A DNA stretch of 64,000 bases, taken from positions 10,425 through 74,424 of the forward strand of contig JAOAET010000041.1 of assembly GCA_026416665.1 (NCBI GenBank), given 5' to 3'. Positions 8,942-58,641 of the stretch are shown here, one piece after another. The translations under genes were made by a program, and so were the position numbers. This DNA comes from Candidatus Omnitrophota bacterium. GTDB lineage: Bacteria; Omnitrophota; Gorgyraeia; Gygaellales; Profunditerraquicolaceae. Under the pieces are notes generated by a model, which saw only the letters and a program-made list of their open reading frames with translations, was not told where the DNA came from and did not search any database. Numbering within the stretch: position 1 is the stretch's first letter; the number at the start of each line of letters is the position of its first letter.

Positions 8942-8957
8942 TAAAAGGAGAAAGCCA

Positions 8958-9671: not shown

Positions 9672-9682
9672 GGAGTTTTACA

Positions 9683-34463: not shown

Positions 34464-35564
34464 ATGTTAAGTATTCTAAATGTATTGAAAAAATATTATG
34501 AAGAGAAGAAGAAGACAGCTGAAGGTGTATCTTCTAATTCTGAAAAAGAGCGTTCAGATGTAACTTCAATAGTACAGAATTTAGAACTTCCTTCCTTGGC
34601 AGACTGCGGTGCTACAAGAGAATCAATAAGTATTTTTACTGTGGTAAACAGACAGTCAGAGGAAGAGAAGGCTCAGAAAGCAAGAGAATTTTATTTTAAT
34701 CTTGTAAATTGGCTAAGAAAGATTTATACAACAGAATTCCAAGCGAATGCACAATTTAAAGAAGAGTGTTTTAGTTTTATTGATGAGCAGTTAACGTATC
34801 TTAACACTGCCGTTGAGGAATTGATTCATCAAGCAAATAGTGACTATCCTGTTGATGAGACCTGGCTTGCTTCTCATGCAGCAGCAGTAAGTGTGATTGC
34901 TTTAGAGATAGCCAAGGGGTTAGAATATAATAGGCAGAAGCTTATGGAACTGGCAGCTTGTGTATTCTTTCATGATATTGGAATGCTTAAGATTTTGGAC
35001 ATTGTCCAGAAACAATCACAATTAAGCAAAGAAGAGTTGGCGCAGATAAGACAACATCCTATTATGGGGACAAGTCTTTTAGGGACGATGAATCTTGGAC
35101 TATTTAGTTGTATAGGTGAGGTTATATTACAAGAGCATGAGCGGATAGATGGTAGTGGGTATCCTCAAGGTTTAAAGCAAGATACAATTAATGAATATGC
35201 AAAGATATTGGGCCTTGCGGATATTTACGAAGCACTTACTCATAATCGCCCTTATCGTAGAAGAATTACACCACCTAAGGCAATAAACTTGATTCTAAAT
35301 AACAAACATCTGTTTGATGCGAAAGTTTTGAAAAAACTTTTAGAACGCATAGGGGTCTTTCCAGCAGGGAGTCTGGTGCGTCTAAATACAAAAGAAATTG
35401 GGGTGGTCACGAAGATTAACCATCAGCTTCCACTTAGGCCCACAGTGTTAGTTTTATTTGAAGAGAAAGGAACAAGACTTTCGGCACCAAAAGAACTTGA
35501 CCTCTCAAAAAATTTTTTACTTTGTATTGAGGAGTGTATTGAGGAAAATGTAACAGTATCTTAA
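34464..35564 (+). CDS. HD-GYP domain protein (c-di-GMP phosphodiesterase family)
   Basis: HDIGMLKI and HERIDGSGYPQGL motifs in the C-terminal half. The N-terminal half has no recognisable domain. Confidence 0.75.
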   Translation: MLSILNVLKKYYEEKKKTAEGVSSNSEKERSDVTSIVQNLELPSLADCGATRESISIFTVVNRQSEEEKAQKAREFYFNLVNWLRKIYTTEFQANAQFKEECFSFIDEQLTYLNTAVEELIHQANSDYPVDETWLASHAAAVSVIALEIAKGLEYNRQKLMELAACVFFHDIGMLKILDIVQKQSQLSKEELAQIRQHPIMGTSLLGTMNLGLFSCIGEVILQEHERIDGSGYPQGLKQDTINEYAKILGLADIYEALTHNRPYRRRITPPKAINLILNNKHLFDAKVLKKLLERIGVFPAGSLVRLNTKEIGVVTKINHQLPLRPTVLVLFEEKGTRLSAPKELDLSKNFLLCIEECIEENVTVS

Positions 35565-37349: not shown

Positions 37350-38225
37350 ATGAGAATTATTTTGCGTATTTTTATAGTTGTTATCAACGTTTTTTGGTTT
37401 TCTTTACTTTTAGCTGGTGATGACGATATTGAAAAAGCCCGACAATATTATGAATTAGGGAACATTCTCTATCAAGAAGGCAAATATGACCAGGCACAAC
37501 AACAGTATCAGAAGGCATTGGAGTTGTTACAGAAAAAGCAATCTTCTTCTTTGACTTCAACACCTTCTTCAATACCTTTACCATCTCCAACTCAGCAGAG
37601 CCAGTTACCAGAAGTTCCTAAAAGAAAAGAGGAGCCACGCCTTATAACCGAGTACAGAATAGGTGATGAGGATATCCTGAAAATTTCTGTTTGGCAGAAT
37701 GATGACTTAAACCAAGAAGTTATTGTTCGTCCTGATGGTAAGATTTCTTTTCCACTTATTGGTGATGTCCCTGCACGCGGTTTAACTATTCCTGAGTTAG
37801 ATGAAGAGATTACCCACCGACTTTCAGAATATGTACGTTCACCAGAAGTTTCTATTTCACTGGTTAAGATGGGTGGGTCTCGGGTTATTATTTTAGGGCA
37901 GGTACACAGACCTGGTGTTTATAATGTATCAGGGGCAAAGACAATTTTAGAAGCAATTGGTTTAGCCGGTGGTTTTACTAATGATGCGGTACCTTCCAGT
38001 ACCATTCTTATTAGAGGTGGGTTTATTGACCCTAAACCACAACGGATTAATTTAAGTAAAGCCCTCAAAGGAAAAAACGCCGAGGCGTTTAGAATTTCGT
38101 TACAACCTGAAGATATAATCTATGTTCCAAAGAAGTTTATCGCCGATATTAATTACGTCCTTTCCCTTATTGTCGACCCTATTGCCAAAGGTACTTATAT
38201 TAAAGATACCTATGAAAAATGGTAA
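37350..38225 (+). CDS. polysaccharide export protein, Wza/KpsD family (Poly_export + SLBB)
   Basis: YRIGDEDILKISVWQNDDLNQEVIVRPDGKISFPLIGDV (Poly_export) and GQVHRPGVYNV...ILEAIGLAGGFT (SLBB) motifs. The N-terminus has a TPR-like helix pair and an S/T/P-rich linker. Confidence 0.75.
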   Translation: MRIILRIFIVVINVFWFSLLLAGDDDIEKARQYYELGNILYQEGKYDQAQQQYQKALELLQKKQSSSLTSTPSSIPLPSPTQQSQLPEVPKRKEEPRLITEYRIGDEDILKISVWQNDDLNQEVIVRPDGKISFPLIGDVPARGLTIPELDEEITHRLSEYVRSPEVSISLVKMGGSRVIILGQVHRPGVYNVSGAKTILEAIGLAGGFTNDAVPSSTILIRGGFIDPKPQRINLSKALKGKNAEAFRISLQPEDIIYVPKKFIADINYVLSLIVDPIAKGTYIKDTYEKW

Positions 38226-38372
38226 AGTGGTAATGGGGCCAGAATTATTTCTGTCTTAAGTTTAATTTCTTTTTAAAACCAACATCTAATTCCAGAGACA
38301 GTAACATTTAAGATTAAATTTTTGATTACATATATATCTTTTTTTAATAAAAACTATGGTAAAATAAATTAT

Positions 38373-38660
38373 ATGGATACACTCTACGAAAAAAATCCTG
38401 ACGTTATTTTTAGAAAAATTGCTGGTGAATATCTGCTTATGCCCATAAAACAAAAGGCAGTAGATTTAAGAAGTATCTATACCTTAAACGAAACAGCTTC
38501 CTGTATCTGGCAACTTCTTGATGGTAAAACAACTATTGGTGATATACAAAAAGCACTTTGTGAGCAATTTGATATTACTTCAGAGCAAGCACTTTGGGAT
38601 ATTCAAGAATTTGTTAGTCAACTGGAGGCGTTAGGTTTTATTCATAGAATAAGCCGATAG
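38373..38660 (+). CDS. PqqD-like protein (RiPP recognition element, RRE)
   Basis: About 95 aa. NETASCIWQLLDGKTTIGDIQKALCEQFDITSEQALWDIQEFVSQLEALGFI is the PqqD/RRE pattern. The start was chosen at the internal ATG 38373. Confidence 0.6.
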   Translation: MDTLYEKNPDVIFRKIAGEYLLMPIKQKAVDLRSIYTLNETASCIWQLLDGKTTIGDIQKALCEQFDITSEQALWDIQEFVSQLEALGFIHRISR

Positions 38661-38661
38661 T

Positions 38662-40419
38662 ATGAAGCAGGTGCTTTTATGTATTCCGCCTGACTACGAC
38701 CATGAATATCCTGCCTTAGGAACAGCGGTTCTTCAGGCGTATCTTAAGAAACACAAGGTTTCTTGTTTACAAATCGACTTAAATCTTGCTTATCGAAAAT
38801 TTCTTGCCCAGCATGTCTGGGCAGAAACAGAGCTTACTTTAGAGGAACAAATTTTTTTCCTACCTTGGCTTATAAAGAAATTCTTTCGCAACTGTCTTAA
38901 AGGTCGTTATTACGAAGATTGTCTTGCCCGCCAATCAGATGGAATCTTTCCAGAGTTGCCTTATGGTAACAACACCAACAGTTCCTTCTTTTTCTGTGAG
39001 CATTTACTTTCTTCAGAATATCTATTTAGATATCTTGAAGATGAAGAAGAAAATACCTTTTGGCAGTTTTTTACACAAAGTGGCATCTTAGATATAATTC
39101 AACAAGAAGACATAAAACTAGTAGGAATCTCTATTATTTCTCCTTCACAGGCAATTGCTTCATTGACATTAGCTTTACTGATTAAGAAGAGATTTCCCCA
39201 AGTGCATGTAAATATCGGTGGACAGTGGCCTACGCTTTACAGACGTCAAATTTTAGAACATAGACAGTTATTTAGATGTTTTGATAGTGTAATCGTCTTT
39301 GAGGGAGAAGTTGCTTTACTAGAATTAGCAAGAAGAGTTTGCGCAAACAAAGAAATTACAGGTATTGCTAATGTTATTACCAAAGATACAAAACTAAATG
39401 AGCACTTTAGAATTGCTGAGATAGATATGCGTAGACTGCCACCACCTGATTTTGAAGGCCTTCTCCTAGGAGAATACGACGGTGCAAGGGATGGCCAGAT
39501 TAGTTTAACTTTTGAGAGTTCTCGAGGTTGTTACTGGGGGCGTTGTGCCTATTGTGTAGATTTACCTTTACCTAAACCCAGTTATCGTATAAAATCAGCA
39601 CAATTAGTAGTAAGAGATATGTGTTATTTAAAGGATAAATTTGGAGCAAGCTTTTTACTATTGAGTGACCCTGGACTTTCTTGTCGTCAGATGGTAGAGA
39701 TTTCGGAAGAGATTATTCGGCAGGGAGTAAAAATTAATTGGTGGACAATGGCACGGCTTGATCCTGGATTTAAGAAAGAACATTTTGAACTTGCCCATAA
39801 AGCAGGCCTTTGCCAGATAAATTTTGGTTTTGAAACAGCATCTGAACGTCTAAGTAAACTTTTAGACAAGGGGAACCTAAGAGAACGTAGTTCTCGCATT
39901 ATCCGAGACTGTGCCTTAAGTGGTATAAAGGTGGATTTGCAGACAATGCTGGGGTTACCGCAGGAAACTTATGAAGAGGCTCTAGAAACAATAGATTTCT
40001 TGCTAGAACACAAAGAGTTTATCAGCCATGTTACCTTTAATATCTATTACCTTACACCTGAGAATTATGTGTATTATAACCCTTACAGGTATGGTATAAG
40101 TTATGACAAAGAAAAAGTTTTGCCTTTTTCTTTCTTTATTCCTTTTCAAAATTTATATGGGATAGATATGGAGAAAGCAGCACAGATAGAAAAAATTTAT
40201 TATGCCTTGGTAGAAAAAGAAAAAATAACAAGCAAAGCCAAAGAAGAAATTGGGAAAATAGACTTATTTAGTTCTACTGAAACAGAAAACAGCCAGCTTT
40301 TAAAAGAGGTGTTTATAACTTTGTTAGATCAAACAGTAAGTATTAAATATTACTATGATGAAAAGACTGATACCTGTACTTTTTTAGAAGAAGAGGATGT
40401 CTTTTCGCAAAGAAGGTAA
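38662..40419 (+). CDS. B12-binding-domain radical SAM enzyme
   Basis: N-terminal cobalamin-binding-like Rossmann segment, then SSRGCYWGRCAYC (Cx4Cx2C radical SAM cluster motif). 585 aa. Confidence 0.75.
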   Translation: MKQVLLCIPPDYDHEYPALGTAVLQAYLKKHKVSCLQIDLNLAYRKFLAQHVWAETELTLEEQIFFLPWLIKKFFRNCLKGRYYEDCLARQSDGIFPELPYGNNTNSSFFFCEHLLSSEYLFRYLEDEEENTFWQFFTQSGILDIIQQEDIKLVGISIISPSQAIASLTLALLIKKRFPQVHVNIGGQWPTLYRRQILEHRQLFRCFDSVIVFEGEVALLELARRVCANKEITGIANVITKDTKLNEHFRIAEIDMRRLPPPDFEGLLLGEYDGARDGQISLTFESSRGCYWGRCAYCVDLPLPKPSYRIKSAQLVVRDMCYLKDKFGASFLLLSDPGLSCRQMVEISEEIIRQGVKINWWTMARLDPGFKKEHFELAHKAGLCQINFGFETASERLSKLLDKGNLRERSSRIIRDCALSGIKVDLQTMLGLPQETYEEALETIDFLLEHKEFISHVTFNIYYLTPENYVYYNPYRYGISYDKEKVLPFSFFIPFQNLYGIDMEKAAQIEKIYYALVEKEKITSKAKEEIGKIDLFSSTETENSQLLKEVFITLLDQTVSIKYYYDEKTDTCTFLEEEDVFSQRR

Positions 40420-41872
40420 TCTTATAAAAATGAGAGCATTTCCTGTATCAATGATGGAAGACCACGACCAGGCCTATTTTTTCTGGAAGAAGCAAGGTCT
40501 AAAAGGATTTACTCTTTTACATATTGATGCACATCTTGACTTTGGTTGGTTGCCAGAACTTGACTGGCAACAATTGCCCACTATTTCTTTTTCACAATTA
40601 CCTGCTTTGCAATCACAACTGTTGCTTAATCCTTTTATTACTTCAAAAGAAAAACTACTTAATATTGGTAATTTTATTTGCTCTGCTATTAGAGATGGTA
40701 TTGTTAGACGGTTGTTTTGGATTGTTCCTGAGCCAACATTAAATTGTCTGCGCGGAAATTATTTCTTGCAGAAGCAGATAAAACAAATCTTACGGCTAAA
40801 AAAAACCGATACAGGTAGCTTTTTGATAAAGCAAAGAAGTATTAATTTCCGCTTGGCAGGAGTTGAGGTTACTGTTTGTGGTTTAAGTGACTTCTGTTAC
40901 GTAGAAGAGCCAGTGCTTCTGGATATAGATGTAGATTTTTTGGTTACTGGCTATATCTGGAATGACGTTGATCCTTGTCGTATTCCTTGGATATACCCTG
41001 ACCAGTTATATGAGTTGGTAAGTAAGAAAATTTCTCAAATTGAGGCCTTAACTATAGCCTATTCAGTGGAAGGAGGCTTTACCCCTCTAAAATTCAAATT
41101 CCTTGGTGATTACCTGCGACTTTACTTTACAGAGGACTTTAGCAAAGAAGATGAAGACAGTTTAGAGAGAAGAAAAGAGGCAATATATTTAGAAGAACAG
41201 AAGCAATACGACAAAGCAGAAGCCATTTATGAGGAACTTTTAAAAATTAACCCAAAAGATGCCTCAATTTATTTTGCTCTTTATTTGTTGAACTTAAACA
41301 GTCACATAGCCGATATTACAAAAGCGAGAAATTATTTCTACAGGGCTATTCAAATTGACCCGACATATTCCACAGAATATAATAATTACGGCATTCTCTA
41401 TGCACGCAATGGCCGTTATAGCCAGGCAAAAAAGTATTACCAAAGGTTCTTAGAGATGTGTCCGACTAATGCTTCTTGCTGGGAAGGATTAGGTTTTATT
41501 GCTTTAAGAGAAAGAGATTACACAGCCTCTCTGAGATTTTTTAAAAAGTCCTTAGAATATGATTCACAAAGATTAGCTAGTCAATTGGGTGTAGCAATTA
41601 TTCATTTTTATCAAGGGGTTTTAGATAAGGCAGAAGAGATGCTTTTTTCGTTAAAAGAGAAGTTAACTGATAATTTTGAAATCTATTGGTGGCTGGCACG
41701 CATTGCCCATAAAAAAGGGCTTAATAAACAGGCAATTAATTACTACAAGAAGGCAGTTTTAACTGGTGGTGAAGGAGTAGCTGTTCACTGGTATCTGGCA
41801 AGTTTGTATTTAAAAGAAAAAAATTTTTTCAGAGTAACAGAAGAATTAAGCCGTATTATTCAACAGATTTAA
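40397..41872 (+). CDS. TPR-repeat protein with N-terminal UPF0489/arginase-like domain
   Basis: N-terminal FTLLHIDAHLDFGW (DAHxD-like metal-site motif). The C-terminal half has at least 5 TPR repeats. The start may instead be the ATG at 40430. Confidence 0.5.
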   Translation: MSFRKEGNLIKMRAFPVSMMEDHDQAYFFWKKQGLKGFTLLHIDAHLDFGWLPELDWQQLPTISFSQLPALQSQLLLNPFITSKEKLLNIGNFICSAIRDGIVRRLFWIVPEPTLNCLRGNYFLQKQIKQILRLKKTDTGSFLIKQRSINFRLAGVEVTVCGLSDFCYVEEPVLLDIDVDFLVTGYIWNDVDPCRIPWIYPDQLYELVSKKISQIEALTIAYSVEGGFTPLKFKFLGDYLRLYFTEDFSKEDEDSLERRKEAIYLEEQKQYDKAEAIYEELLKINPKDASIYFALYLLNLNSHIADITKARNYFYRAIQIDPTYSTEYNNYGILYARNGRYSQAKKYYQRFLEMCPTNASCWEGLGFIALRERDYTASLRFFKKSLEYDSQRLASQLGVAIIHFYQGVLDKAEEMLFSLKEKLTDNFEIYWWLARIAHKKGLNKQAINYYKKAVLTGGEGVAVHWYLASLYLKEKNFFRVTEELSRIIQQI

Positions 41873-41875
41873 GAT

Positions 41876-42154
41876 ATGTTTTTACAGAATAAACTAAAGA
41901 GGTGTTTTCAAAAAAACGAAGATATTATTGAAGAAGAAAAAGACAGGATAATTACTCTTTTTGACCCGTATCGTAGAGTAGCAATTAGATTAAGTCCTAC
42001 TGGATATAGGATTTGGCAGTTAATAGATGGTCGCCGTCAAGTATCCGATATTATTGAAGAATTGAAAAAAGATTTTGAGGTCAATGAAAAAACCATCTGT
42101 AGAGATGTTATATGTTTTCTGGATAAGTTAGCTAAAAGAGAGATAATCAAATAA
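41876..42154 (+). CDS. PqqD-like protein (second discrete RRE)
   Basis: 92 aa. RLSPTGYRIWQLIDGRRQVSDIIEELKKDFEVNEKTICRDVICFLDKLAKREII is the PqqD pattern. Confidence 0.55.
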   Translation: MFLQNKLKRCFQKNEDIIEEEKDRIITLFDPYRRVAIRLSPTGYRIWQLIDGRRQVSDIIEELKKDFEVNEKTICRDVICFLDKLAKREIIK

Positions 42155-43275
42155 TGTTTTGTTCAATTCAGCAAAGAAAATTTGCGGATTTATGTAACGA
42201 ACTCGATTCTGTGGCTATTAAAGAAAAGATTCCTTATATGTGTGCCTTTGAACTTACTTATCGGTGCAATTTATCCTGCTGTCACTGTTATTGCAATTTA
42301 CCAGCAAATCATCCCAACAAAGAAAAGGAGATTCCCACAAATAAGGTTAGGCAACTTCTTGATGAAATGGTAGATAGTGGGTGTTTATGGTTATTGTTGA
42401 CAGGGGGTGAGGTGTTTTTACGTGAAGATTTTTGGCAAATCTATCTGTATGCCTTAAGAAAAGGTTTTCTTATTGACCTGTTTACCAATGCGACATTACT
42501 AGATGAGGAGAAAGTGAAACGTCTTTCCGATTACCCACCTCTTTCTCTAGAAATAAGTTTATATGCTGCAAAGGAACAAATTCATGATAATATAACTGGA
42601 GTGTGTGGTTCATTTAAGCGGTTAATGAATGCTATCACTGCCCTTAAAAAATACAATGTACCTTTCTCATTAAAAAGTATTTTGATGAAAGAGAACATTG
42701 CTGAACTTACTGCTATGCGTAAATTAGCCAAGGATTATCAGGTAAGTTTTCGTTATGATACATTAATCTGTCCTCGCTTAGATGGAGGTAACTTGCCCTT
42801 GATTCATCGGTTAAGCGAATGGGAAATGGCACAATTGGATATATTAGATGATTACCCTATTTTGGAGAAGATTTTTCAGGAATATTGGGCTAAACCAATG
42901 TCAGAGCCACTTATCTGCGGAGCAGGGGTATTTGCCTTTAATATTAATCCATACGCAGTGTTAAGCCCTTGCACGATGTTTAAGAGTTTTCAATATTCGT
43001 TACATAATGTGTCTTTTTTGGAAGCTTGGAAAAAGATGACTGGTGAGTTTGAAAAAAAAATAAAATATCTTCTGGAACCTCTTTGCCAAAAATGTAATAT
43101 GGTTTATATTTGTCCCAATTGTCCTGCCTGGAGTGAGTTGGAGACAGGCAGTTTAAAGGGTATTGTCAGACATATCTGCCTATATGCCAAGACACTAGAA
43201 AAGATTTACAGGATAACAAAGGAGGGCAATAATGGAGAAAAAGCCTTATCAAAAACCAACAATGCAGGAGGTTAA
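42154..43275 (+). CDS. radical SAM enzyme with C-terminal SPASM domain (peptide-modifying maturase family)
   Basis: CAFELTYRCNLSCCHCY (Cx3Cx2C) and a Cys-rich C-terminus CQKCNMVYICPNCPAWSE typical of SPASM auxiliary clusters. Confidence 0.8.
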   Translation: MFCSIQQRKFADLCNELDSVAIKEKIPYMCAFELTYRCNLSCCHCYCNLPANHPNKEKEIPTNKVRQLLDEMVDSGCLWLLLTGGEVFLREDFWQIYLYALRKGFLIDLFTNATLLDEEKVKRLSDYPPLSLEISLYAAKEQIHDNITGVCGSFKRLMNAITALKKYNVPFSLKSILMKENIAELTAMRKLAKDYQVSFRYDTLICPRLDGGNLPLIHRLSEWEMAQLDILDDYPILEKIFQEYWAKPMSEPLICGAGVFAFNINPYAVLSPCTMFKSFQYSLHNVSFLEAWKKMTGEFEKKIKYLLEPLCQKCNMVYICPNCPAWSELETGSLKGIVRHICLYAKTLEKIYRITKEGNNGEKALSKTNNAGG

Positions 43276-43390
43276 ACTTTCTATTGATGATACTTTATTA
43301 TCTGCCTGTCGTAAGACAGCAACTTCACGGGTCAATCCTAAACGGGGAACTTCTTGCCGTGCCTGCAGAACAACCTATCGTTCTTCATAA
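43232..43390 (+). CDS. candidate RiPP precursor peptide (52 aa, not in the supplied ORF track): MEKKPYQKPTMQEVKLSIDDTLLSACRKTATSRVNPKRGTSCRACRTTYRSS
   Basis: ATG at 43232 with an AAAGGAGGG RBS 6 nt upstream. It overlaps the last 44 nt of the rSAM-SPASM gene in another frame. The leader has a lasso-type YxxPxL element (YQKPTM). The core is Cys/Thr/Ser/Arg-rich with 3 Cys. Confidence 0.45.
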   Translation: MEKKPYQKPTMQEVKLSIDDTLLSACRKTATSRVNPKRGTSCRACRTTYRSS

Positions 43391-43408: not shown

Positions 43409-44293
43409 ATGAAAGATGATATTGGAGTAAGTAATAGCTTTAGTGTCTTACTTAACATAGCAGGTTTAGGCCTGTCTATTAAAAGTAGTGTGCCTTTTCG
43501 TTGTTTTAAGGATTTTAGTTTCTATGAAAAGTTCATTGTAAATGAATTTCCTGAGATATCGTGTTTTCTTACCCATCGAATAGGAGTGCCGAATCTTTAT
43601 TTAAATACTGCCACAGAAACTTTTACTACCCAAAATTGGCTACTTCAAACCACTACAGACAAAAAAATTCTTATTGTTGGTCCACAACAAAAAAACAAAC
43701 TAGTAGATAATGTAGCAGTATTTAACTCAGATTATAGTCAGGGTATTTTGTATCAGAAACATATCTATGAGATATTTCGTAGGTTTATAGACCAGTTTTT
43801 ATTTATCAATATTTTAAGTAGAAGAAAAGGATTTCTATTTCACGCCTCAGGTGTAATTTACCAGAATAAAGGACTTTGTTTTGCTGGCGTATCTGGAAGC
43901 GGAAAATCTACTTTACTTAGTCTTTGGCGAAGAGAAGTCCCAGAGGATGCTTTATTAAACGATGACAGAGTAGCATTGCGTAGAATAAAAAGAAGGTGGT
44001 TAATTTTTGGAACGCCTTGGTATGGTGAGTCAAAAGTTGCTACCAACAAATCGGCACGGTTAAATACCATTTTTTTTATTCGCCATGCGGATAAGACTTT
44101 TCTTAAGCCGATATCCGTAAACCAGGCATTAGCAAAGTTAGGGGTACTGGCTTTATTACCTTTATGGGATAAATCTTCTGTTAAGCAGGTATTATCTTCC
44201 TTTGAGATGTTGGTAAAAGAGGTTCCTATGTATGAATTTGGTTTCCGACCTGATAAAACGGCAGTAGAAACAATAAAAGAGCTCTTATGCTAA
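43409..44293 (+). CDS. HPr-kinase-C-like P-loop kinase
   Basis: GLCFAGVSGSGKSTLLS Walker A in an HprK_C-like context. Homologues occur as precursor-peptide kinases in lasso-type clusters. Confidence 0.55.
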   Translation: MKDDIGVSNSFSVLLNIAGLGLSIKSSVPFRCFKDFSFYEKFIVNEFPEISCFLTHRIGVPNLYLNTATETFTTQNWLLQTTTDKKILIVGPQQKNKLVDNVAVFNSDYSQGILYQKHIYEIFRRFIDQFLFINILSRRKGFLFHASGVIYQNKGLCFAGVSGSGKSTLLSLWRREVPEDALLNDDRVALRRIKRRWLIFGTPWYGESKVATNKSARLNTIFFIRHADKTFLKPISVNQALAKLGVLALLPLWDKSSVKQVLSSFEMLVKEVPMYEFGFRPDKTAVETIKELLC

Positions 44294-46455
44294 TGGAGGT
44301 TGTTTGTTCTCAGCAAGAATTTGATAAATTATTGACACAGATACGCTCAAAGGTAAACTATGTTACTTTTCAGGCAAGAGGAGCAAGTATGTTTGCCTTT
44401 ATCAAGAAAGGGGATTGGTTAAAAATAGAAATTCTGCCTCAGAACAGCGATTGTTTAATTCGTAAGGGAGACGTTGTCCTTTTTAAAAAACAAGATATGC
44501 TTTTTCTACATAGAGTTATACGGATAAATAAGGAAGGATTTTTAGTAAAAGCAGATGCCTCTTTAGGAAGTGACGGAGTTATTTTGCCTGATGAGATTAT
44601 AGGAAAACTTATTACTATTCAAAGAGGCAGAAAATTGATAGATTTAGATAAACGAGTTTACCGTTTGGTAGCATTAGGTATAGCCAATTTAAGTAATCTG
44701 TTTTCTTGCTTATGGTTTATTTTCGATAAACTGTGCATGTTTTATCTTAAGATACTGCATTGCTTACAGAAAGTTTCCCTCTACAGAAAAATAGCCCGTA
44801 TGTTTTGTGGAGATATTATTATTCGGCAAGCAACTACAAATGACCAACAGCAGTTACGTGATTTGTATCGTATGGCTGGTATTGATGTACAAGAAGGGCT
44901 GAGTAAAATAAAGTTAGAAGGATTTTGGTTAGTAGCCCAGAGAAATAAAAAGATAGCCGCAGCGGTTACTATTTCTGCCAGTGAAAGTGACCCAAGTTTT
45001 TGGCTTATCTTTGGCTTGGAAGTAAAGCCATGGTTGCGCGGTATGGGAATCGGGAAAAAAATTATTCAACACGCAATAAGCATGGCCAAGGAAAGAGGTG
45101 CAAAAAAGATAGGTTTGTTTGTATCCAAAAAAGCAACCGCTGCAGTTAATCTTTATCGGTCTTTGGGTTTTATTCCCACAGAAGAAGTTCCCGAAGGTTA
45201 TAATCGCTGGCAAGAAGATTTGTTTTTAGTATACAGTGATTGTTTTAAGAAGAGAAAAAAACAACAAGGAGAAGCAAAAAAAATGTATTCAGAAGAGCCA
45301 CTTAGTTCTTCCTTAAAGGCTTCCTTAAAGGCCCTTATTCAACTGGTTTGCTTAGATAATCAATCTAGAAGTAACTTTAATTATAGAAATTTTTCTGTTA
45401 TACAGTGGCAAGATTTACTAAAACTCTCCATTAAGGAAGGATTATTTTTTCCTTTCTGGCAGGGTTTACAAAGATATTTTCATCTACAACAGAAAACTCA
45501 AAACTCTCCATTAACCTTTACAAAGATGAACTTCATCAAAGAGATTATTCCTGAGCAAGTAGCAGAAGAGTTTATGGATAACTATTACCATCATCTTGCC
45601 GCAAGTATGATGTTTAGTTCAGCGGTAGAATCAATTCTAAACCATCTAGAGAATCATCAAATACTTACACTTCTTATGAAAGGTCCAACGGTAGATAATA
45701 TTATTTACGGTGACTACTTACGTAGCCGTGGCGATTTAGATATTGTGGTGAAACAAAAAGATTGGCCTTTACTTACTAGGGTTTTAGAAAATATAGGATA
45801 TTTTATACAACTACCGCCAAGAGATTACCCATTATTTGAATACCAGAATAGTCTTTTATTCTTACCTAAAAAAGAAGGCATACCCATTCATCTACATAAT
45901 AACTTATTTAATAATTTATATTTAGGCGTTGATGGGCTATTTTTGCCTTCTATGGAAAAAGTTTGGCAAGAGACTATACCGCTTAAGAATTACCAGTGGA
46001 TTCGTGCTTTGCAACCTGAAATGCAGATTATTTATCTTTGTGAACATGCAGTTAAACATAATTTTGAACAGTTGGTTTTAGCTTATGAAATCCAGAGGAT
46101 AATTCTTATATATGCGAATTCTCTGGACTGGAATAAATTAGTGATTCTTACCCAATCAATGGGGTTAACCCAGGTTGTATATACTGCCTTAGAAGTGGTC
46201 AGAGACCTGTTTAACATAGATTTACCTGTTGAACGGTTAAAGAGATTACAACCGAAGCTTACTGTTGTCCAGAGATGTTTTCTAAGAAAAGTAAGAGATA
46301 GGAAGATATCTTATTGGACTTGTTATCCTTTATATCTTAGTATGCGCAAAAAATTTTTTTATAAACTGCGTTTTATCTGGTACAGTTTTTTCCCACCTGG
46401 TTTTCCTTTGCGAGGATATCTTACTAGGATAAGGAAATTAATACTGGCACAATGA
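44287..46455 (+). CDS. tri-domain fusion: S24/S26-peptidase-like N-terminus + GNAT acetyltransferase + uncharacterised nucleotidyltransferase (NTP_transf_5-like)
   Basis: GASMFAFIKKGDWLKIE (peptidase S24/S26 fold), a GNAT core (RGMGIGKKIIQHAISMAKERGAKKIGLFV) and a C-terminal LLMKGPTVDNIIYGDYLRSRGDLDIVV nucleotidyltransferase motif. 722 aa. Confidence 0.55.
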   Translation: MLMEVVCSQQEFDKLLTQIRSKVNYVTFQARGASMFAFIKKGDWLKIEILPQNSDCLIRKGDVVLFKKQDMLFLHRVIRINKEGFLVKADASLGSDGVILPDEIIGKLITIQRGRKLIDLDKRVYRLVALGIANLSNLFSCLWFIFDKLCMFYLKILHCLQKVSLYRKIARMFCGDIIIRQATTNDQQQLRDLYRMAGIDVQEGLSKIKLEGFWLVAQRNKKIAAAVTISASESDPSFWLIFGLEVKPWLRGMGIGKKIIQHAISMAKERGAKKIGLFVSKKATAAVNLYRSLGFIPTEEVPEGYNRWQEDLFLVYSDCFKKRKKQQGEAKKMYSEEPLSSSLKASLKALIQLVCLDNQSRSNFNYRNFSVIQWQDLLKLSIKEGLFFPFWQGLQRYFHLQQKTQNSPLTFTKMNFIKEIIPEQVAEEFMDNYYHHLAASMMFSSAVESILNHLENHQILTLLMKGPTVDNIIYGDYLRSRGDLDIVVKQKDWPLLTRVLENIGYFIQLPPRDYPLFEYQNSLLFLPKKEGIPIHLHNNLFNNLYLGVDGLFLPSMEKVWQETIPLKNYQWIRALQPEMQIIYLCEHAVKHNFEQLVLAYEIQRIILIYANSLDWNKLVILTQSMGLTQVVYTALEVVRDLFNIDLPVERLKRLQPKLTVVQRCFLRKVRDRKISYWTCYPLYLSMRKKFFYKLRFIWYSFFPPGFPLRGYLTRIRKLILAQ

Positions 46456-47241
46456 GCCATCTTTTTGGACTCTTCTTATTGCCCAGTCAAACATAAGAAT
46501 GGAAAAAGGTAAAAGGGTTATAGAAAAAAAGAAGAGGAAAAAAATCTGAGGTAACAGTTTCTCCAAAGAATAATTTTTATACACTGCAGATTGTATTGCC
46601 TCAATAGCGTAGGTAATGGGAAATAAACGTGCACAAATTTGAAGCCAAAAAGGCAATACTGTAATTGGGAAATACACGCCTCCGAGTAATCCTTCCAGAG
46701 TTCCGATTAACCAACTCAAAGGATTGGCTCGTTTAGTTATCATTACAAAGCTTGCAGAAAGTATACCTAAACCAGAAAAAGAGGTAATGGTAAGAAAAAG
46801 AATAACCGCGCAAGACACTATATTTATTTGCTGAAAGTCAATACGAAATAAAAAGACAGCTAAAAGAAGATAAATTATTAGGTCAACAGTAGCAATAATT
46901 AGATTCCACAGAACCAGTGAGAACAAAAAGACACTTATTCTAGTAGGTGTAGCAACAATAGCTTCAAGGGTACCTTGCTGTTGTTCTAAACGCAGACGGT
47001 CTGAGAATGCCCCTAAGCCCACACCAGCATAACCAAAAAATGCGCTACTTAGTAAGACGTAAGCAAAATAATTTACGCCAAAAGGTTCGAGATGCCTGAC
47101 TATGGTATGACCAAATAGTTTATCAATAAAGAAATAACTTAATAAATTAAAAAAGATACCGAGGATATTTAGAAAAAATGACAGACGGTAACTTGTCTCT
47201 TGAAGAAAATCTTTTTTAAGAAAAGCAAATACTCTACGCAT
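46438..47241 (-). CDS. ABC-2 type transporter permease
   Basis: 267 aa. Six TM segments and an ABC-2 membrane pattern. Confidence 0.65.
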   Translation of the reverse strand: MRRVFAFLKKDFLQETSYRLSFFLNILGIFFNLLSYFFIDKLFGHTIVRHLEPFGVNYFAYVLLSSAFFGYAGVGLGAFSDRLRLEQQQGTLEAIVATPTRISVFLFSLVLWNLIIATVDLIIYLLLAVFLFRIDFQQINIVSCAVILFLTITSFSGLGILSASFVMITKRANPLSWLIGTLEGLLGGVYFPITVLPFWLQICARLFPITYAIEAIQSAVYKNYSLEKLLPQIFFLFFFSITLLPFSILMFDWAIRRVQKDGSLCQY

Positions 47242-47242
47242 T

Positions 47243-48073
47243 CTATTTTTCTTGCTTAGAGGTTAATTCCAAAAACAACTCTTTAACAGATGCCTTAGGG
47301 TTGCGGGTCGCCTGTCTTAACTCTTCTTGAGTTCCAAAACCACAGACCCTGCCTTGTTTGATAATAAGATATAAGGTGGCTAACTCTTCTGCTTCTTCCC
47401 AGCGATGGGTGGTAAAAATTACAGTTGCTTTCTGACGTCCAAGTATTTCGTGTTTTAAGAATTCACGCAATTTTAGACAACAGCGGTAATCTAGACTTTT
47501 ACTTGGCTCATCCAACAGCAGAAGACGAGGTTCATGCATAAAAGCACGCACAAGTCCTATTTTTTGTTGCATCCCTGTAGAGTAATTGTCAAAGCGTTTA
47601 TCTAAAAAATCTATTTCAAACAGGTTAGATAACTTCTCAATTTGTTGGGAAGTTTGTTTTTTGGATAGGCCATAGAGAGAAGCAAAAAACTCTAAATTCT
47701 GTCTTCCGGTTAATCGCCAATAAAAAGTTCTTTCACTATTCGTTACCAGACCAATTAAACGTTTCAGTTTATAACCATTTTTGGTAGAATTAAGGCCATC
47801 AAAGATTATTTCTCCCTTATCAGGTAAAAGAATATTGGCAACAATCTTTAGGAGAGTAGTTTTGCCTGCTCCGTTAGGACCAAGTAGTGCTAATACTTGA
47901 CCAAATTCTAAAGAAAAAGATACATCAGATAGGGCAACTAATGGTTGTCGTGACGGGTGTCTAAAAAAAGGTAAGTTGTTTAAAACTAAGGGAAAAAAAA
48001 TCTTTGTAATACCTTTTACTTTTAGCATAGTTTTAAGTTTAGCAGATAAGTATCTGTGCGTCAACAGTAGCAA
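47243..48073 (-). CDS. ABC transporter ATP-binding protein
   Basis: Walker A LLGPNGAGKTTLLK, ABC signature YSTGMQQKIGL, Walker B LLLLDEPS. Confidence 0.8.
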   Translation of the reverse strand: MLLLTHRYLSAKLKTMLKVKGITKIFFPLVLNNLPFFRHPSRQPLVALSDVSFSLEFGQVLALLGPNGAGKTTLLKIVANILLPDKGEIIFDGLNSTKNGYKLKRLIGLVTNSERTFYWRLTGRQNLEFFASLYGLSKKQTSQQIEKLSNLFEIDFLDKRFDNYSTGMQQKIGLVRAFMHEPRLLLLDEPSKSLDYRCCLKLREFLKHEILGRQKATVIFTTHRWEEAEELATLYLIIKQGRVCGFGTQEELRQATRNPKASVKELFLELTSKQEK

Positions 48074-48216: not shown

Positions 48217-49098
48217 ATGGGTAGAAAAAAGGTAGTTATTATGTCGTGTTTAATTTTTTGTATCCTCATACTTATGAAGGATTTTGTTAATGCAGAGACA
48301 AAAGATAATAGTCAGGTGCCTGAGTGGCTTAAGCGCACCAGTTACGGAATAAATATTGACTCATCTCAGAAACCGAGAATTTATATTGAGACAGTACAAC
48401 CACTCTATCAGGATGAAGACAAGATAGATACTTTTTTTACCCATGGGCGTATAAATATTCAAAACGAAAGAGGTATTTACAACTTGGGTTTGGGCTATCG
48501 CAGGTTACTTACAGAAGAATTTTTAGCAGGGATAAATACCTTTTTTGACTACCAAGATTTACATAACCACTATCGCACAGGTTTTGGTTTAGAAGCAATT
48601 GGCAAGCGTGCTGAAGCAAGATTAAATACTTATTTTGGACTTTCACCGACTCGCAAAGTTAAAGAGACCGCCAGCTCTACTCAATATGAAAAGGCCGTAG
48701 ATGGTTTCGATGTAGAACTTGGAGGACCGGTGCCCTATTTACCTTGGTTAAAATTATTTGGTAGTTATTATCAATATGACTTTAAGAAATTTAAAGATAT
48801 GCAAGGTTCAAAAATTCGTAGTGAAATAAAATTGATAAAATGCCTGACTATTAATTTAGAGACATATGATGATAATAAAGGTGAGCGTGAATATGCAATG
48901 GACACCAGATTTAATTTTGCCTTTGATAATTTTAGTTTCAAGGATTTTTTGAGTGCTTTCAAGTTGGAGAACGAAAAATATAAAGAAGTCAACTTGCGTG
49001 ACCGTACCTTAGACAGGGTAGAGAGAAACTTTAATATTCAGGTAGAAAAATGGGCTGAGGTTACAGGTATGACTGTGGAGATCGGAAGGGGAAGTTAA
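48217..49098 (+). CDS. outer-membrane beta-barrel resembling the inverse-autotransporter (intimin/invasin) beta domain, without passenger
   Basis: Signal peptide. YNLGLGYRRLL...GINTFFDYQD...YRTGFGLEAIG...GFDVELGGPVPYLPWLKLFGSYYQYD is collinear with the intimin beta-domain motif series. Confidence 0.45.
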   Translation: MGRKKVVIMSCLIFCILILMKDFVNAETKDNSQVPEWLKRTSYGINIDSSQKPRIYIETVQPLYQDEDKIDTFFTHGRINIQNERGIYNLGLGYRRLLTEEFLAGINTFFDYQDLHNHYRTGFGLEAIGKRAEARLNTYFGLSPTRKVKETASSTQYEKAVDGFDVELGGPVPYLPWLKLFGSYYQYDFKKFKDMQGSKIRSEIKLIKCLTINLETYDDNKGEREYAMDTRFNFAFDNFSFKDFLSAFKLENEKYKEVNLRDRTLDRVERNFNIQVEKWAEVTGMTVEIGRGS

Positions 49099-49118: not shown

Positions 49119-49772
49119 ATGGAAAAAAAATTAATATTAGGATTAATAATATTATTTACCTTGCAAGTATCATCTTATGGTGATAACGTGGCTGTTACTC
49201 CTCAAGAATACATAGTTACTATTAATAAAATTGAATTCTATAACGAAGATACCTCTTCTTGGATCACCGTTGGTGAAGGAAAGCTTAGTTTTGATATTGC
49301 TTCAGTTAATGCCGGACAGACAGTGGGTAGTTATGTAGATGCTAGTGCCGTTGCCGAAGGTACTTATACGCAGGGAAGAGTTTATGTTTCACTTACCTTT
49401 TATTTAAAGGCCAGTGCTACTATTGATGGGACTACTTACTACACAACTGAAGGCGGATACGAGAATCCTTTCCCTGATTCTGAACTTCAAGGTTACATTG
49501 CTGCAAAAACTACAACGGATCCTAATCGCGCTTCCAGGGGAATATCGGTTCTTACCGAACAGGCTTTAGAAAGAGCAGGTTTTGATGTTGTAGGAGATAG
49601 TTTTATATTTGAAGGAGAAGTTCTATTACCTATTGTAGTAAAAAAAGGTTTTACCAAAAAGGTCAGAATTAATTTTAATGTAACAAATAGTGTAGCCTTT
49701 GAAGAGATTCCTTCCGGCGACGTGGTGTGTTATCCTTTACCGCCAGTACTTACTTTTAAGGTAATTGACTAA
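49119..49772 (+). CDS. secreted hypothetical protein
   Basis: Signal peptide (LILGLIILFTLQVSSYG). 217 aa, beta-rich composition. Confidence 0.4.
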   Translation: MEKKLILGLIILFTLQVSSYGDNVAVTPQEYIVTINKIEFYNEDTSSWITVGEGKLSFDIASVNAGQTVGSYVDASAVAEGTYTQGRVYVSLTFYLKASATIDGTTYYTTEGGYENPFPDSELQGYIAAKTTTDPNRASRGISVLTEQALERAGFDVVGDSFIFEGEVLLPIVVKKGFTKKVRINFNVTNSVAFEEIPSGDVVCYPLPPVLTFKVID

Positions 49773-50072: not shown

Positions 50073-52055
50073 ATGGCACAATACGAACTTAATTTACGAG
50101 ATTATCTAAGGATTCTGCGTAAACGTAAGTGGGTTATTTTTCTTACTTTTGCAGTGGTTAGCATCATAAGTATTTTAGTGTTAAGTAGTGGCGAAAAAAT
50201 ATATCGGGCCACTGCCACTGTTAAAATTCAAGAGCGTAAAACCATTGCAGGGCTTTTGACTGAGATGTTTGTTTATAGCCCTGGGGATATTATGACTACT
50301 GAGTCGCAATTTGTAACAAGTTTTCCTATTGCGCTTAACGTATGCTTACGTATGGATAAATTAAAAGATGATTGGCTTAGTCGAAAACGTAAGATGGGAG
50401 AGATAGAGTACATAGAACCAGAGGATGTTAAACCCGAGTTTATTGAAGAAGTAAATCAAGTTGTTGGGGAATTGCAGAGTAAGATAAAAGTAGAAATAGT
50501 ACAAAATACCAATATGTTACGCATAAGCGCAGAGTCAAGTGTTCCTGTTGAGGCCATGGATATTGCTAATATGGTAGCCACAGTTTATATAGAAGCAAAC
50601 TTAAGAGAAAAGAATAAACACGCTGCCCATGCCCGCCAGTTTATTGAAGAACAATTGCAGACTTTAGAAGCTAACTTGCGCCGTTCCGAAGATGAGAAAC
50701 TGCAAAAGTTTGGTGAAGGTGCTGAGATGGTAAAACTTGCCCAACCCATTGAAGATAAATTGGTAGAACTGCAGTTTAAACTCTCTGAACTTCTACAAAA
50801 ATATACCGAACGCCATCCTCAAGTTATTCAATTACGCCAGCAGATTAAGAGTTTAGAAGAACAAGTTCAAGGTGTTTCCGGCAGACAACTAGAATATGCA
50901 CGGTTAGTCCGAGAAATTGAAGTAAATAAAAAACTTTATGAAATGCTTAAGGAGAAATTGGAAGAGGCACGTATCACCGAGGCACAAAGAGTAAGTGATG
51001 TCTCTTTTGTTGAACGAGCAGTTATGCCTGAAGAACCTCTAAGTGGTGACCGCACACTTAAGATTGTTATGGCTTCCTTTTTGGGATTAATTTTAGGGGT
51101 ATCTATGGCTTTTATTTTAGAAACAATGGATACCTCTATTGGTACTATTGAAGATGTGGAGAATGTGATAAAACTTCCTGTTTTAGGTGTTGTCCCACCT
51201 ATTGAGTGGGAAACAAAGACATATACTATTTTACATCGAATAAAGGAACAATTTTTCCCTTCTAACAAAAATGATGCCGAAGAACGTCTTGTTCACCTCT
51301 ACGCCCATTTTAAACCGCAGTCACCTACAACAGAAGCATTTCGCAATATACATACCAATCTTAAACTTAATACTACAAGAAAAGTGTTAATTATCACCAG
51401 TTCTGGTCCTAGAGAAGGGAAGAGCACAGTGGTTTGTAACTTAGGGTTAGTTATGGCACAGATAGGGTTACGGACTCTTTTAGTATCTTGTGATTTACGC
51501 AGACCAGTTATCGCTAAAATATTTGGGATTAAGCGCGAACCAGGTTTAAGTGAATTAATAAGGGGTAGTGCTTCTTTAGATGAAGTCCTTTATAATATTA
51601 CAGATTTGTTACTTGGTGATTTGGGGTTTGATGTGATACGTAAAACCCCTGGGATGGAGAATATTTGGATATTACCTTCTGGACATCTTCCTTCTAACCC
51701 CGTTGAAATTTTAGAATCAAAGGCAATGTCAGATATAATTGTTCAGCTGAGAGAAAAATTTGACGTTGTTCTTTTTGATACCCCGCCAGTTTTACCGGTT
51801 ACTGATGCCAGTTTATTAGCCAGTAAAGTAGATGGGGTAGTCATTGTGTATGAGATTGGGCGTACAGGTAGAGAAGGACTTATGCGCACAAAAGTGCAAC
51901 TTGAGGCAGTAGGCGCTAAAATCTTAGGCGTTGTCCTAAATCACACAATGCCTCAGACAGAGTTAGTATCACCTTATCCTTACTACCATAAGTATGCCTA
52001 CTATAGTGAAGAAAAACAGATTAACAAAAAAAATACAAATCGTGAAAAGACCTAA
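50073..52055 (+). CDS. polysaccharide co-polymerase/BY-kinase (Wzc/CapAB-like: Wzz domain + tyrosine autokinase + C-terminal Tyr cluster)
   Basis: Two TM segments flanking a periplasmic coiled-coil. Walker A ITSSGPREGKST (CapB-like), Walker B VLFDTPPV, C-terminal PYPYYHKYAYYSEE tyrosine cluster. Confidence 0.8.
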   Translation: MAQYELNLRDYLRILRKRKWVIFLTFAVVSIISILVLSSGEKIYRATATVKIQERKTIAGLLTEMFVYSPGDIMTTESQFVTSFPIALNVCLRMDKLKDDWLSRKRKMGEIEYIEPEDVKPEFIEEVNQVVGELQSKIKVEIVQNTNMLRISAESSVPVEAMDIANMVATVYIEANLREKNKHAAHARQFIEEQLQTLEANLRRSEDEKLQKFGEGAEMVKLAQPIEDKLVELQFKLSELLQKYTERHPQVIQLRQQIKSLEEQVQGVSGRQLEYARLVREIEVNKKLYEMLKEKLEEARITEAQRVSDVSFVERAVMPEEPLSGDRTLKIVMASFLGLILGVSMAFILETMDTSIGTIEDVENVIKLPVLGVVPPIEWETKTYTILHRIKEQFFPSNKNDAEERLVHLYAHFKPQSPTTEAFRNIHTNLKLNTTRKVLIITSSGPREGKSTVVCNLGLVMAQIGLRTLLVSCDLRRPVIAKIFGIKREPGLSELIRGSASLDEVLYNITDLLLGDLGFDVIRKTPGMENIWILPSGHLPSNPVEILESKAMSDIIVQLREKFDVVLFDTPPVLPVTDASLLASKVDGVVIVYEIGRTGREGLMRTKVQLEAVGAKILGVVLNHTMPQTELVSPYPYYHKYAYYSEEKQINKKNTNREKT

Positions 52056-58636: not shown

Positions 58637-58641
58637 AAAGT

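Follow-up and report, generated by a model that had tools for sequence, protein, structure and literature searches.

A kinase and a three-domain fusion protein as probable late enzymes of a RiPP-like cassette within an exopolysaccharide locus of a Candidatus Omnitrophota bacterium

The locus and its conserved cassette

A stretch of 64,000 nucleotides from a Candidatus Omnitrophota bacterium (assembly GCA_026416665.1, contig JAOAET010000041.1, positions 10,425 to 74,424 of the forward strand), referred to below as the window, was analyzed around two genes on the + strand. The first (43409-44293) encodes a kinase-like protein of 294 amino acids, the second (44287-46455) a protein of 722 amino acids in which a peptidase-like domain, a GNAT domain and a nucleotidyltransferase (NTase) domain are joined. 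The two open reading frames (ORFs) overlap by 7 nt (ATGCTAA). NCBI labels the protein identical to the 722-residue product, from a Candidatus Omnitrophica metagenome-assembled genome (MAG), as “GNAT family N-acetyltransferase”, and the 294-residue protein as a hypothetical protein. We conclude that the two are probably late tailoring and processing enzymes of a conserved cassette which resembles those for peptides that are made by ribosomes and modified after translation (RiPPs) and which lies inside an exopolysaccharide (EPS) locus. The original prediction for this DNA had described an HprK_C-like kinase of the lasso peptide (paeninodin) type next to a new tailoring architecture. It had placed both ORFs correctly, and the two peptides that it quoted, GASMFAFIKKGDWLKIE and LLMKGPTVDNIIYGDYLRSRGDLDIVV, are both found in the translation.

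The kinase gene and the tri-domain gene form the end of a conserved cassette of nine genes that is closed by an ABC-2 exporter. The order is PqqD, B12-binding radical SAM enzyme (B12-rSAM), arginase-TPR protein, a second PqqD, radical SAM (rSAM)/SPASM maturase, 52-residue precursor, kinase, tri-domain protein and, in convergent orientation, the ABC-2 transporter (46438-48073; Table 1). The metal-site motifs HIDAHLD and DIDVD can be read in the translation of the arginase-TPR gene, the TPR array being C-terminal. The maturase gave its top NCBIfam matches with the rSAM/SPASM families AhbD, mycofactocin, PqqE, WgkB, AlbA and ScmE, all of them below cut-off. In four related loci (L001, L002, L003 and L008) the ABC-2 permease gene is kept in the same place. 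Pfam and NCBIfam scans detected no peptidase domain in the ABC transporter, and in the conserved cassette, syntenic loci included, no protease other than the N-terminal domain of the 722-residue protein.

Table 1. Features of the cassette, of the encoded domains and of the surrounding EPS locus (positions of the window)
Feature	Coordinates	Strand	Evidence or remark
pepcterm_ATPase-like gene	33532-34440		EPS locus, upstream
HD-GYP-like response regulator	34464-35564		EPS locus, upstream
Wza-like polysaccharide export protein	37350-38225	+	TIGR03027 pepcterm_export, E 3.5e-34; upstream border of cassette
PqqD-family RiPP recognition protein, first of two	38322-38660	+	PF05402, E 1.9e-18
B12-binding radical SAM enzyme, nearest to RiPP C-methyltransferases	38662-40419	+	PF02310 and PF04055; TIGR03975 rSAM_ocin_1, 119 bits, below cut-off
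Peptide-arginase-like N-terminal domain (FlmR/OhkR type) fused to TPR repeats	40397-41872	+	NF052474 pept_arginase, E 1.2e-9, residues 16-182; PF12640 weak; TPR families strong
PqqD-family protein, second	41876-42154	+	PF05402, E 1.7e-15
Radical SAM/SPASM-type peptide maturase	42154-43275	+	PF04055, E 4.4e-20
Candidate precursor, 52 residues, MEKKPYQKPTMQEVKLSIDDTLLSACRKTATSRVNPKRGTSCRACRTTYRSS	43232-43390	+	AGGAGG 6 nt upstream of ATG; conserved position
P-loop kinase-like protein, HprK/PEPCK fold, annotated as Pfam ScmC; predicted peptide Ser kinase	43409-44293	+	Annotation, fold, motifs
Tri-domain protein, domain 1 (residues 1-122): Sec11/SipW-like S26 serine peptidase, predicted leader peptidase	44287-44652	+	Conservation, profile, fold
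Long helix joining peptidase to GNAT (residues 123-175)	44653-44811	+	DSSP helix 123-174 in model
Domain 2 (residues 176-320): GNAT acetyl/acyl-transferase	44812-45246	+	PF00583, PF13508, PF13673
Inter-domain linker (residues 321-365)	45247-45381	+	AAGGAG 45266-45271; in-frame ATG 45283-45285 (Met333)
Domain 3 (residues 366-722): PF14907 (NTP_transf_5) pol-beta-type nucleotidyltransferase, PsmN-like by annotation	45382-46455	+	
ABC-2 type transporter permease, convergent	46438-47241	-	PF01061, E 6.9e-16; 18-nt overlap with 3' end of tri-domain gene
ABC transporter ATPase, DrrA-like	47243-48073	-	PF00005, E 3.3e-28; TIGR01188, E 2.1e-52
Wzc-like chain-length determinant / tyrosine autokinase	50073-52055	+	Wzc, eps_fam, pepcterm_ChnLen and pepcterm_TyrKin matches; downstream border
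Wzy_C	52137-53516		EPS locus, downstream
MOP flippase	53506-55086		EPS locus, downstream
GT2/GT4 glycosyltransferases	56059-60884		EPS locus, downstream

The kinase

The predicted fold and the motifs support the 294-residue protein as a kinase of the HprK superfamily; its membership in HprK_C is not borne out by sequence. Beyond generic P-loop families, Pfam gave no match at E <= 10, HprK_C (PF07475) included. Among the NCBIfam models, TIGR04355 (HprK_rel_B) matched weakly and locally (residues 131-195, 31.7 bits against a cut-off of 200), TIGR04352 reached 15.5 bits, which is below threshold, and the ScmC-family model, which we take to be the equivalog TIGR04249, did not match at E <= 0.01. 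In precomputed database annotation, Pfam PF27840 (ScmC) is assigned to the identical protein P0005 and to most of about 60 homologues that are 40-52% identical. Searches of the PDB with single sequences returned nothing useful for the kinase, the peptidase domain or the NTase domain, and a kinase profile run against PDB sequences returned generic P-loop matches only.

An AlphaFold model of the kinase, computed from 33 homologues, had a pLDDT of 91.8. When it was compared with the PDB by Foldseek, the top match was an ATP-dependent PEP carboxykinase (ATP-PEPCK; E 1.9e-7), and HprK/P was found with 1knx (7e-6) and 1kkl (6e-5, target TM-score 0.51); the PEPCK and HprK/P matches all had a Foldseek probability of 1.00. 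In the catalytic pattern of HprK/P, a His precedes GxSGxGKS/T, which is followed at a distance of about 17 residues by a DD pair. The window kinase follows this pattern, and none of the residues concerned (His145, the P-loop G160-x-S-G-x-G-K-S-T168 and N184-D185-D186) varies among the 33 sequences. In the lasso kinase PsmK, the equivalents of Asp185-Asp186 (D158/D159) are essential (PMC6993621). The fold, the invariant motifs and the weak TIGR04355 match speak for the predicted HprK-like kinase; Pfam HprK_C does not.

The peptidase domain

The N-terminal domain had been predicted to be an S24/S26 peptidase, with conservation of a Ser/Lys dyad as the check. Pfam Peptidase_S24 (PF00717) matched residues 20-107 with 19.3 bits in the full protein and with exactly 23.3 bits in the isolated domain, the cut-off being 23.3; the NCBIfam model of archaeal-type signal peptidase I (TIGR02228) scored 29.7 against a cut-off of 51.85. 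In a set of 34 members of the domain, S24 was matched by all 34 at E <= 0.1 and S26 by 14. A profile built from these 34 sequences found SEC11C (E 4.6e-13), SEC11A (8.4e-12), SpsB (5e-7) and LexA (2e-4) in the PDB, and in the profile alignment the GxSMxP, HRV and KGD...D motifs of the domain stand against SGSMEP, VHRV and TKGDNN..DD of human SEC11C/SEC11A. Conservation was counted in 89 homologous domains drawn from an exhaustive search of representative sequences (see below). Ser34 is kept in 85 of them, Met35 in 88, Pro37 in 86 (the window protein has Ala), Asp96 in 65, and His75, Arg76 and Asp90 in all 89. Lys88, the only nearby lysine, is Lys in just 55 of the 89, and the general-base position is held by His75 throughout. 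A model of the domain (AlphaFold, pLDDT 90) matched SipA, SpsB and the C-domains of LexA in Foldseek. Taken together, the conserved Ser-His-Asp, the SEC11 profile matches and the clan-SF folds argue for a clan-SF peptidase of the Sec11/SipW (S26B) type with Ser34, His75 and Asp90, and not for an S24 enzyme with Ser and Lys. The peptidase prediction thus stood, while the Ser/Lys dyad was not conserved.

We also considered two other roles for the domain, one in self-cleavage or regulation after the manner of LexA/UmuD, the other as a silent SipA-like module that binds peptides, in either case controlling or docking the fused enzymes. Its top Foldseek match, SipA, is a non-catalytic signal-peptidase homologue, LexA C-domains match as well, S24 rather than S26 is the Pfam family common to all 34 members, and the precursors described below have no clear signal-peptidase cleavage motif. 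However, silent homologues of the SipA type have lost the catalytic Ser/His/Asp residues, whereas Ser34, His75 and Asp90 are almost invariant among the 89 homologues and align with the catalytic residues of SEC11A/C. The domain also occurs by itself (150-180 residues) beside kinase and rSAM genes, where it has nothing fused to release. Such a role is thus improbable.

A Kyte-Doolittle scan found no hydrophobic N-terminal segment that could serve as a membrane anchor of the peptidase domain. In the long helix that follows (residues 123-174), the 19-residue maximum is 1.79 (residues 127-146), a borderline value where a membrane span is concerned, and the hydrophobicity of the helix is not conserved in distant homologues. 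A reading in which this helix crosses the membrane and puts the peptidase outside the cell was weighed against these values. Since the enzymes fused downstream of the peptidase presumably depend on acetyl-CoA and nucleotides, which are cofactors of the cytoplasm, the peptidase is probably cytoplasmic.

The GNAT and nucleotidyltransferase domains and the fusion

As judged by sequence profiles, the assignments of the other two domains are unambiguous. PF00583 matches residues 211-295 of the GNAT domain with E 2.1e-15 (57.4 bits, cut-off 20.7); the top NCBIfam match is RimI (E 3.2e-9, below cut-off), and the acetyl-CoA motif R251-G252-x-G254 is invariant among orthologues. PF14907 covers residues 372-643 with E 8.8e-31 (107.8 bits, cut-off 31.2; profile positions 3-249 of 249). 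A PDB search yielded no solved structure related to the NTase domain by sequence. Its motifs K465-G466-P467 and D483-x-D485 are invariant among the aligned orthologues, and mutation of the residues of PsmN that correspond to Asp483/Asp485, D134/D136, inactivates PsmN (PMC6993621). The fusion of a GNAT and a PF14907 nucleotidyltransferase to a peptidase-like N-terminus was therefore predicted correctly, with matches above cut-off for the two enzymes and with profile and fold for the peptidase.

This fusion is real, labile and not unique. The reading frame is open across the GNAT-NTase junction and for the full 2169 nt, and the orthologues P0003 and P0004, which are about 33% identical to the window protein, share its three domains and lie in fully syntenic clusters. 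The fused gene is found in five of eight Omnitrophota cassettes (the window, L001/L011, L002, L004 and L008); in the other three (L003, L009 and L010) it is split into a peptidase-GNAT gene and an NTase gene, with an overlap of 8 nt. On a rough tree, fused and split versions are intermingled, which implies that fusion or fission occurred more than once; the fused L008 protein and its split L003 counterpart are 60% identical. The exhaustive search yielded 1096 cluster representatives at E <= 1e-10. Architectures were counted in the top 150 of these, with 17 tri-domain proteins, 35 peptidase-GNAT, 35 peptidase-NTase, 58 NTase-only and 1 permuted. Peptidases that stand alone (150-180 residues) adjoin the same partners in a Terriglobales locus and in a KSB1 locus. 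A locus search of species-representative genomes with the kinase alignment gave no confirmed locus; one with the tri-domain alignment returned four loci of the tri-domain type under the title Omnitrophota, one of them a duplicate of L001, a truncated GNAT-NTase locus titled Planctomycetales and an unrelated Aeromonas GNAT.

Within the linker between GNAT and NTase, AAGGAG and the ATG of Met333 appear to be either the relic start of a formerly separate NTase gene or a working internal start. One could thus suppose that the 722-residue fusion is a recent or artefactual read-through, and that the NTase is made wholly or partly from this ribosome-binding site and ATG (45266-45285). The two elements are well spaced, the separate NTase genes of the three split loci begin (MALDK.../MANPN...) at the equivalent point, the linker is an insertion with respect to the other fused orthologues, and the exact sequence is found in one MAG only. 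Against this stand the open frame and the independent fusions in L001, L002, L004, L008 and many metagenome clusters, which mark the fusion as a tolerated state, and internal initiation would add to the fusion protein rather than replace it. We regard the read-through as quite improbable. The same architecture in related Omnitrophota genomes and metagenome clusters means that the fusion is no artefact. It also means that the claim of a unique new tailoring architecture does not hold: peptidase-NTase, peptidase-GNAT and tri-domain proteins are common in uncultured bacteria, and fusions of the lasso protease B2 with an NTase are known (PMC8498205).

Related loci in metagenomes

A metagenome scan with the peptidase-NTase alignment yielded 80 loci, which were mapped with hidden Markov models made from the alignments of this analysis. 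As these loci were chosen by similarity and are not all independent, counts taken from them are indicative and do not amount to a census. In 29 loci at least 4.5 kb lie upstream of the NTase gene; the kinase is present in 23 of them, the peptidase in 20, PqqD in 25 and the rSAM/SPASM enzyme in 24. A B12-rSAM gene was not found in this 29-locus sample, and arginase and GNAT occur in three loci each, so that all three are accessories. GNAT and arginase are never found together in these six metagenome loci (three have GNAT only, three arginase only), whereas the Omnitrophota cassette has both.

In L046, L060 and L062, ORFs of 679 residues on the - strand join an rSAM/SPASM maturase to a ScmC-type kinase; these loci also have several extra rSAM/SPASM genes.

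The precursor peptide

The candidate precursor gene has a strong ribosome-binding site and overlaps the 3' end of the rSAM/SPASM gene. The peptide contains three Cys and many Arg, ends in Ser and has no Pfam or NCBIfam match. Homologous peptides are encoded at the same position in 7 other Omnitrophota loci and 21 metagenome loci. A C-terminal Ser is found in all 8 Omnitrophota precursors and in 20 of the 21 metagenomic ones (28/29 together). The Omnitrophota consensus, from 8 loci, is KKPYQKP..EVKL..EDTLL(S/T)ACR...C(R/S)(A/R)C(R/M)(T/V)TYRxS, with the three Cys and the C-terminal Ser invariant. The 21 metagenomic precursors, all distinct and directly upstream of a kinase gene, end in Gly-Ser in 15 cases and have exactly three Cys in 18. 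Homologues in the 28 other loci share the leader KKxYxKPxIxxVxLxxE(E/D)AVLxxC(K/R). Where the Omnitrophota precursors are Arg-rich (“ACR...CRACR”) and arginase is present, most relatives without arginase have Lys (“ACK...CK”), a pattern which suggests that ornithine substitutes for lysine.

As originally framed, the two enzymes would be a lasso tailoring pair of the paeninodin/pseudomycoidin type. A kinase of the HprK superfamily, an NTase, PqqD and a C-terminal Ser all occur in such clusters (PMC8498205, PMC6993621). Neither an Asn-synthase-like lasso cyclase nor a transglutaminase-like B2 protease was found, however, among the cassette genes, the other scanned ORFs of the window or the eight syntenic loci, and the scaffold is made of rSAM/SPASM, B12-rSAM and arginase instead. 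Seven of the eight Omnitrophota precursors also lack a macrolactam Asp/Glu after the conserved Cys; the L001 peptide has one Glu. Without cyclase and B2 protease, we reject the lasso reading as extremely unlikely.

Linkage to polysaccharide export

The cassette lies between a Wza-like and a Wzc-like gene, and the same bracketing is seen in L001 and L002. A Wzc-like gene follows downstream in L001-L004, L009 and L010; no Poly_export gene was detected upstream of the cassette in L003, L004, L009 and L010. In the KSB1 locus L007, both EPS genes are upstream of the cassette. In the metagenome sample, 27 loci had enough downstream DNA, and Poly_export and GNVR genes come after the NTase gene in 16 of them and are missing from 11. 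Two single ORFs (L038, 2649-5384, 912 residues; L042, 9782-12619, 946 residues) encode an S26-like peptidase, a PF14907 NTase, a signal-anchor-like hydrophobic segment (RRLRKICLVLLLCMPVLSVSSANA) and a Wza-like Poly_export/SLBB protein. Such an arrangement suggests a cytoplasmic peptidase-NTase part with a physical link to the export protein. In L001 and L002, the tri-domain gene has a gene for a family 2 glycosyltransferase (GT2) as its immediate downstream neighbour. The flanking genes of the window have their top NCBIfam matches in XrtA/PEP-CTERM EPS families, all below cut-off, and no exosortase was found among the window ORFs scanned.

From this linkage it could be argued that the module primarily serves EPS biogenesis, with a phospho-sugar peptide that primes, anchors or regulates the polymer exported by Wza/Wzc, or with enzymes that act on sugar- or lipid-linked intermediates. 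The bracket in the window, L001 and L002, the presence of such genes beside the cassette in L003, L004 and L007, the 16 metagenome loci in which Poly_export and GNVR genes come right after the NTase gene, the single peptidase-NTase-anchor-Poly_export polypeptides, the XrtA/PEP-CTERM likeness of the flanking genes and the GT2 genes of L001 and L002 would all agree with such a role. The Ser-phosphate-hexose that depends on PsmN (PMC6993621) also looks like a phosphoglycosyl primer. On the other hand, the core partners follow RiPP grammar, with PqqD and rSAM/SPASM, a short precursor that contains Cys and has a conserved leader, a protease and an ABC exporter, and the linkage is not universal, as the 11 loci without it demonstrate. 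To our knowledge, no peptide-primed polysaccharide has been described so far. We consider a primary role in EPS biogenesis rather unlikely. More specifically, the product could be a peptide with a phosphodiester-linked sugar on its C-terminal Ser that is wired into Wza/Wzc export as primer, covalent anchor or gatekeeper, and no free antibiotic-like RiPP. This would explain why the genes lie between Wza-like and Wzc-like genes across phyla, as well as the L038/L042 fusions and the GT2 gene after the tri-domain gene; we put it forward as a speculation that is doubtful at present.

Several further features of the surroundings were noted. A giant protein with PATR/RCC1 repeats (about 3450-3490 residues) is encoded immediately upstream of the cassette, in place of the Wza-like gene, in three related loci (L003, L004 and the contig of P0016). 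A small GT2 of the window (56925-57704, + strand) has its top NCBIfam match with the SunS peptide S-glycosyltransferases (E 2.4e-13, 49.7 bits against a cut-off of 350). A protein of 293 residues (48217-49098, + strand), encoded in the interval from the ABC transporter to the Wzc-like gene, shows weak likeness to the N-terminal beta-barrel region of inverse autotransporters (intimin/invasin), and the next ORF, of 217 residues (49119-49772), has no family match. Two PilQ/GspD-like secretin genes (24639-26474 and 30235-31977, + strand) flank a coiled-coil SMC-like protein of 1175 residues (26489-30016), and further coiled-coil proteins are encoded at 31986-32930 and 35574-37346. A signalling region (7724-13609 and 20294-22303, + strand) comprises a GGDEF protein, a PAS histidine kinase, a PAS-GGDEF-HD-GYP protein and a second PAS histidine kinase, which is consistent with control of the neighbouring surface-polymer genes by cyclic di-GMP.

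Proposed pathway

For the RiPP-like pathway that we favor, we infer the following substrates and order of steps. The PqqD proteins presumably bind the leader of the 52-residue precursor, and the rSAM/SPASM enzyme would then modify its three Cys; in the Omnitrophota lineage, the B12-rSAM methyltransferase and the peptide arginase would act on the precursor as well. By analogy with PsmK, the kinase may phosphorylate the C-terminal Ser52, and by analogy with PsmN, the PF14907 domain may decorate the phospho-Ser with a hexose or a nucleotide. The nucleotidylation originally proposed thus has its domain, yet it is not the sole candidate chemistry, since PsmN, the one relative of this kind that has been studied, is needed for the addition of one or two hexoses to phospho-Ser (PMC6993621). 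The S26-like domain would remove the leader. With no other protease in the conserved cassette, a leader peptidase, as suggested earlier, remains the most economical reading for this predicted enzyme. The GNAT domain would acetylate or acylate an amine, most likely the new N-terminus, because GNAT domains are so often fused directly to the peptidase and the weak top named relative, RimI, is an N-alpha-acetyltransferase; the side chain of Orn or Lys would be the alternative. All three activities of the 722-residue protein would be joined in one cytoplasmic polypeptide, and the convergent ABC-2 transporter would export the product. Acylation of arginase-made ornithine by the GNAT domain, as in the selidamide pathways, was also considered and downgraded, as arginase and GNAT are found together in the Omnitrophota cassette only.

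A number of points weigh against this pathway. No convincing Ala-x-Ala-type or otherwise consistent signal-peptidase cleavage site could be read in the 29 precursors. Classical S26 peptidases work outside the membrane, and the S26-type domain described here has no N-terminal anchor and is followed by a helix of borderline hydrophobicity. The kinase remains below the HprK_C and HprK NCBIfam thresholds, so that it is fold, motifs and the C-terminal Ser that carry the substrate analogy with PadeK/PsmK. PsmN is assumed to be a member of PF14907 since it has been described as an “uncharacterized nucleotidyltransferase”. As to the GNAT target, the idea of arginase followed by GNAT is not supported across loci, with both genes in none of the six. 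Finally, a simple model of a secreted peptide leaves the tight Wza/Wzc linkage (16 of 27 loci) unexplained.

The underlying system is broader and more interesting than a single tri-domain protein. In the literature that we found, a C-terminal Ser receives HprK-type phosphorylation and PsmN-type decoration only as optional tailoring of lasso peptides; in the family described here, the same enzyme logic would be the conserved core of a different, widespread peptide family based on rSAM/SPASM enzymes. This family occurs in uncultured phyla, namely in Omnitrophota, KSB1, Terriglobales and many unbinned metagenome contigs. In literature accessible outside subscription, we found no description of the cassette, of the precursor family or of an S26-type RiPP leader peptidase, and kinases, NTases and signal peptidases are not mentioned in two papers on mining for RiPP recognition elements. 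We found no report of the Sec11-like fold in the role proposed here, that of a RiPP leader peptidase which is a probably cytoplasmic serine peptidase. The recurrent fusions (peptidase-GNAT, peptidase-NTase, tri-domain, rSAM-kinase and peptidase-NTase-Wza) represent a ready set of constructs for the function of PF14907, and the linkage to EPS loci could point to a tie between ribosomal peptides and the assembly of capsule or EPS.

Comparison with known systems

The Scm (SynChlorMet) and HPr-rel-A/B systems of Haft (TIGR04248-04251, TIGR04352-04355) bring together PqqD, rSAM/SPASM and a ScmC/HprK-related P-loop protein, as does the window. These systems have reportedly been defined by bioinformatics only. 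The window proteins have weak top matches with these models and score far below their equivalog cut-offs (ScmE 76 versus 400, ScmD 39 versus 100, HprK_rel_B 32 versus 200).

With the Sec11/SipW/archaeal type I signal peptidases (MEROPS S26B), the peptidase domain shares the GxSMxP, HR and KGDxxxxxD motifs and the clan-SF beta-barrel fold. Unlike these, it has no N-terminal anchor, is probably cytoplasmic and stays below the cut-off of TIGR02228, and its presumed substrate is a RiPP leader rather than a Sec signal peptide.

In the selidamide pathways, a GNAT (KspN/PhaN) acylates ornithine made by an arginase (KspR/PhaR) (PMC8784127). The window resembles them in its FlmR/OhkR-like arginase domain, its GNAT and its Arg-rich core. 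It differs in that arginase and GNAT do not co-occur in related loci and in that there is no lanthionine synthetase and no NHLP or Nif11 leader; the constant fusion of its GNAT to a peptidase points to a new N-terminus as the target, unlike the ornithine of the selidamides.

A close parallel in enzyme logic is offered by PadeK/PsmK and PsmN of the paeninodin and pseudomycoidin systems. In lasso clusters, HprK homologues act on the linear precursor and phosphorylate its C-terminal Ser, the remaining sequence mattering little (PMC8498205, PMC6993621), and the NTase is in some cases joined to B2, the leader protease (PMC8498205), which parallels the protease-NTase fusion of the window. An HprK-superfamily kinase that adjoins an NTase and PqqD, a precursor ending in Ser, the DD of the kinase and the DxD of the NTase are common to both. 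In contrast to those systems, the window has no lasso cyclase or B2 and a scaffold built by rSAM/SPASM and, in this lineage, B12-rSAM and arginase; its protease is S26-like and not a cysteine protease of the transglutaminase fold, its kinase is annotated as ScmC-type and has no Pfam HprK_C match, a GNAT stands between protease and NTase, and the cassette is linked to an EPS locus. By this comparison, the system would work like the PsmK/PsmN tailoring pair, yet it is not a lasso system.

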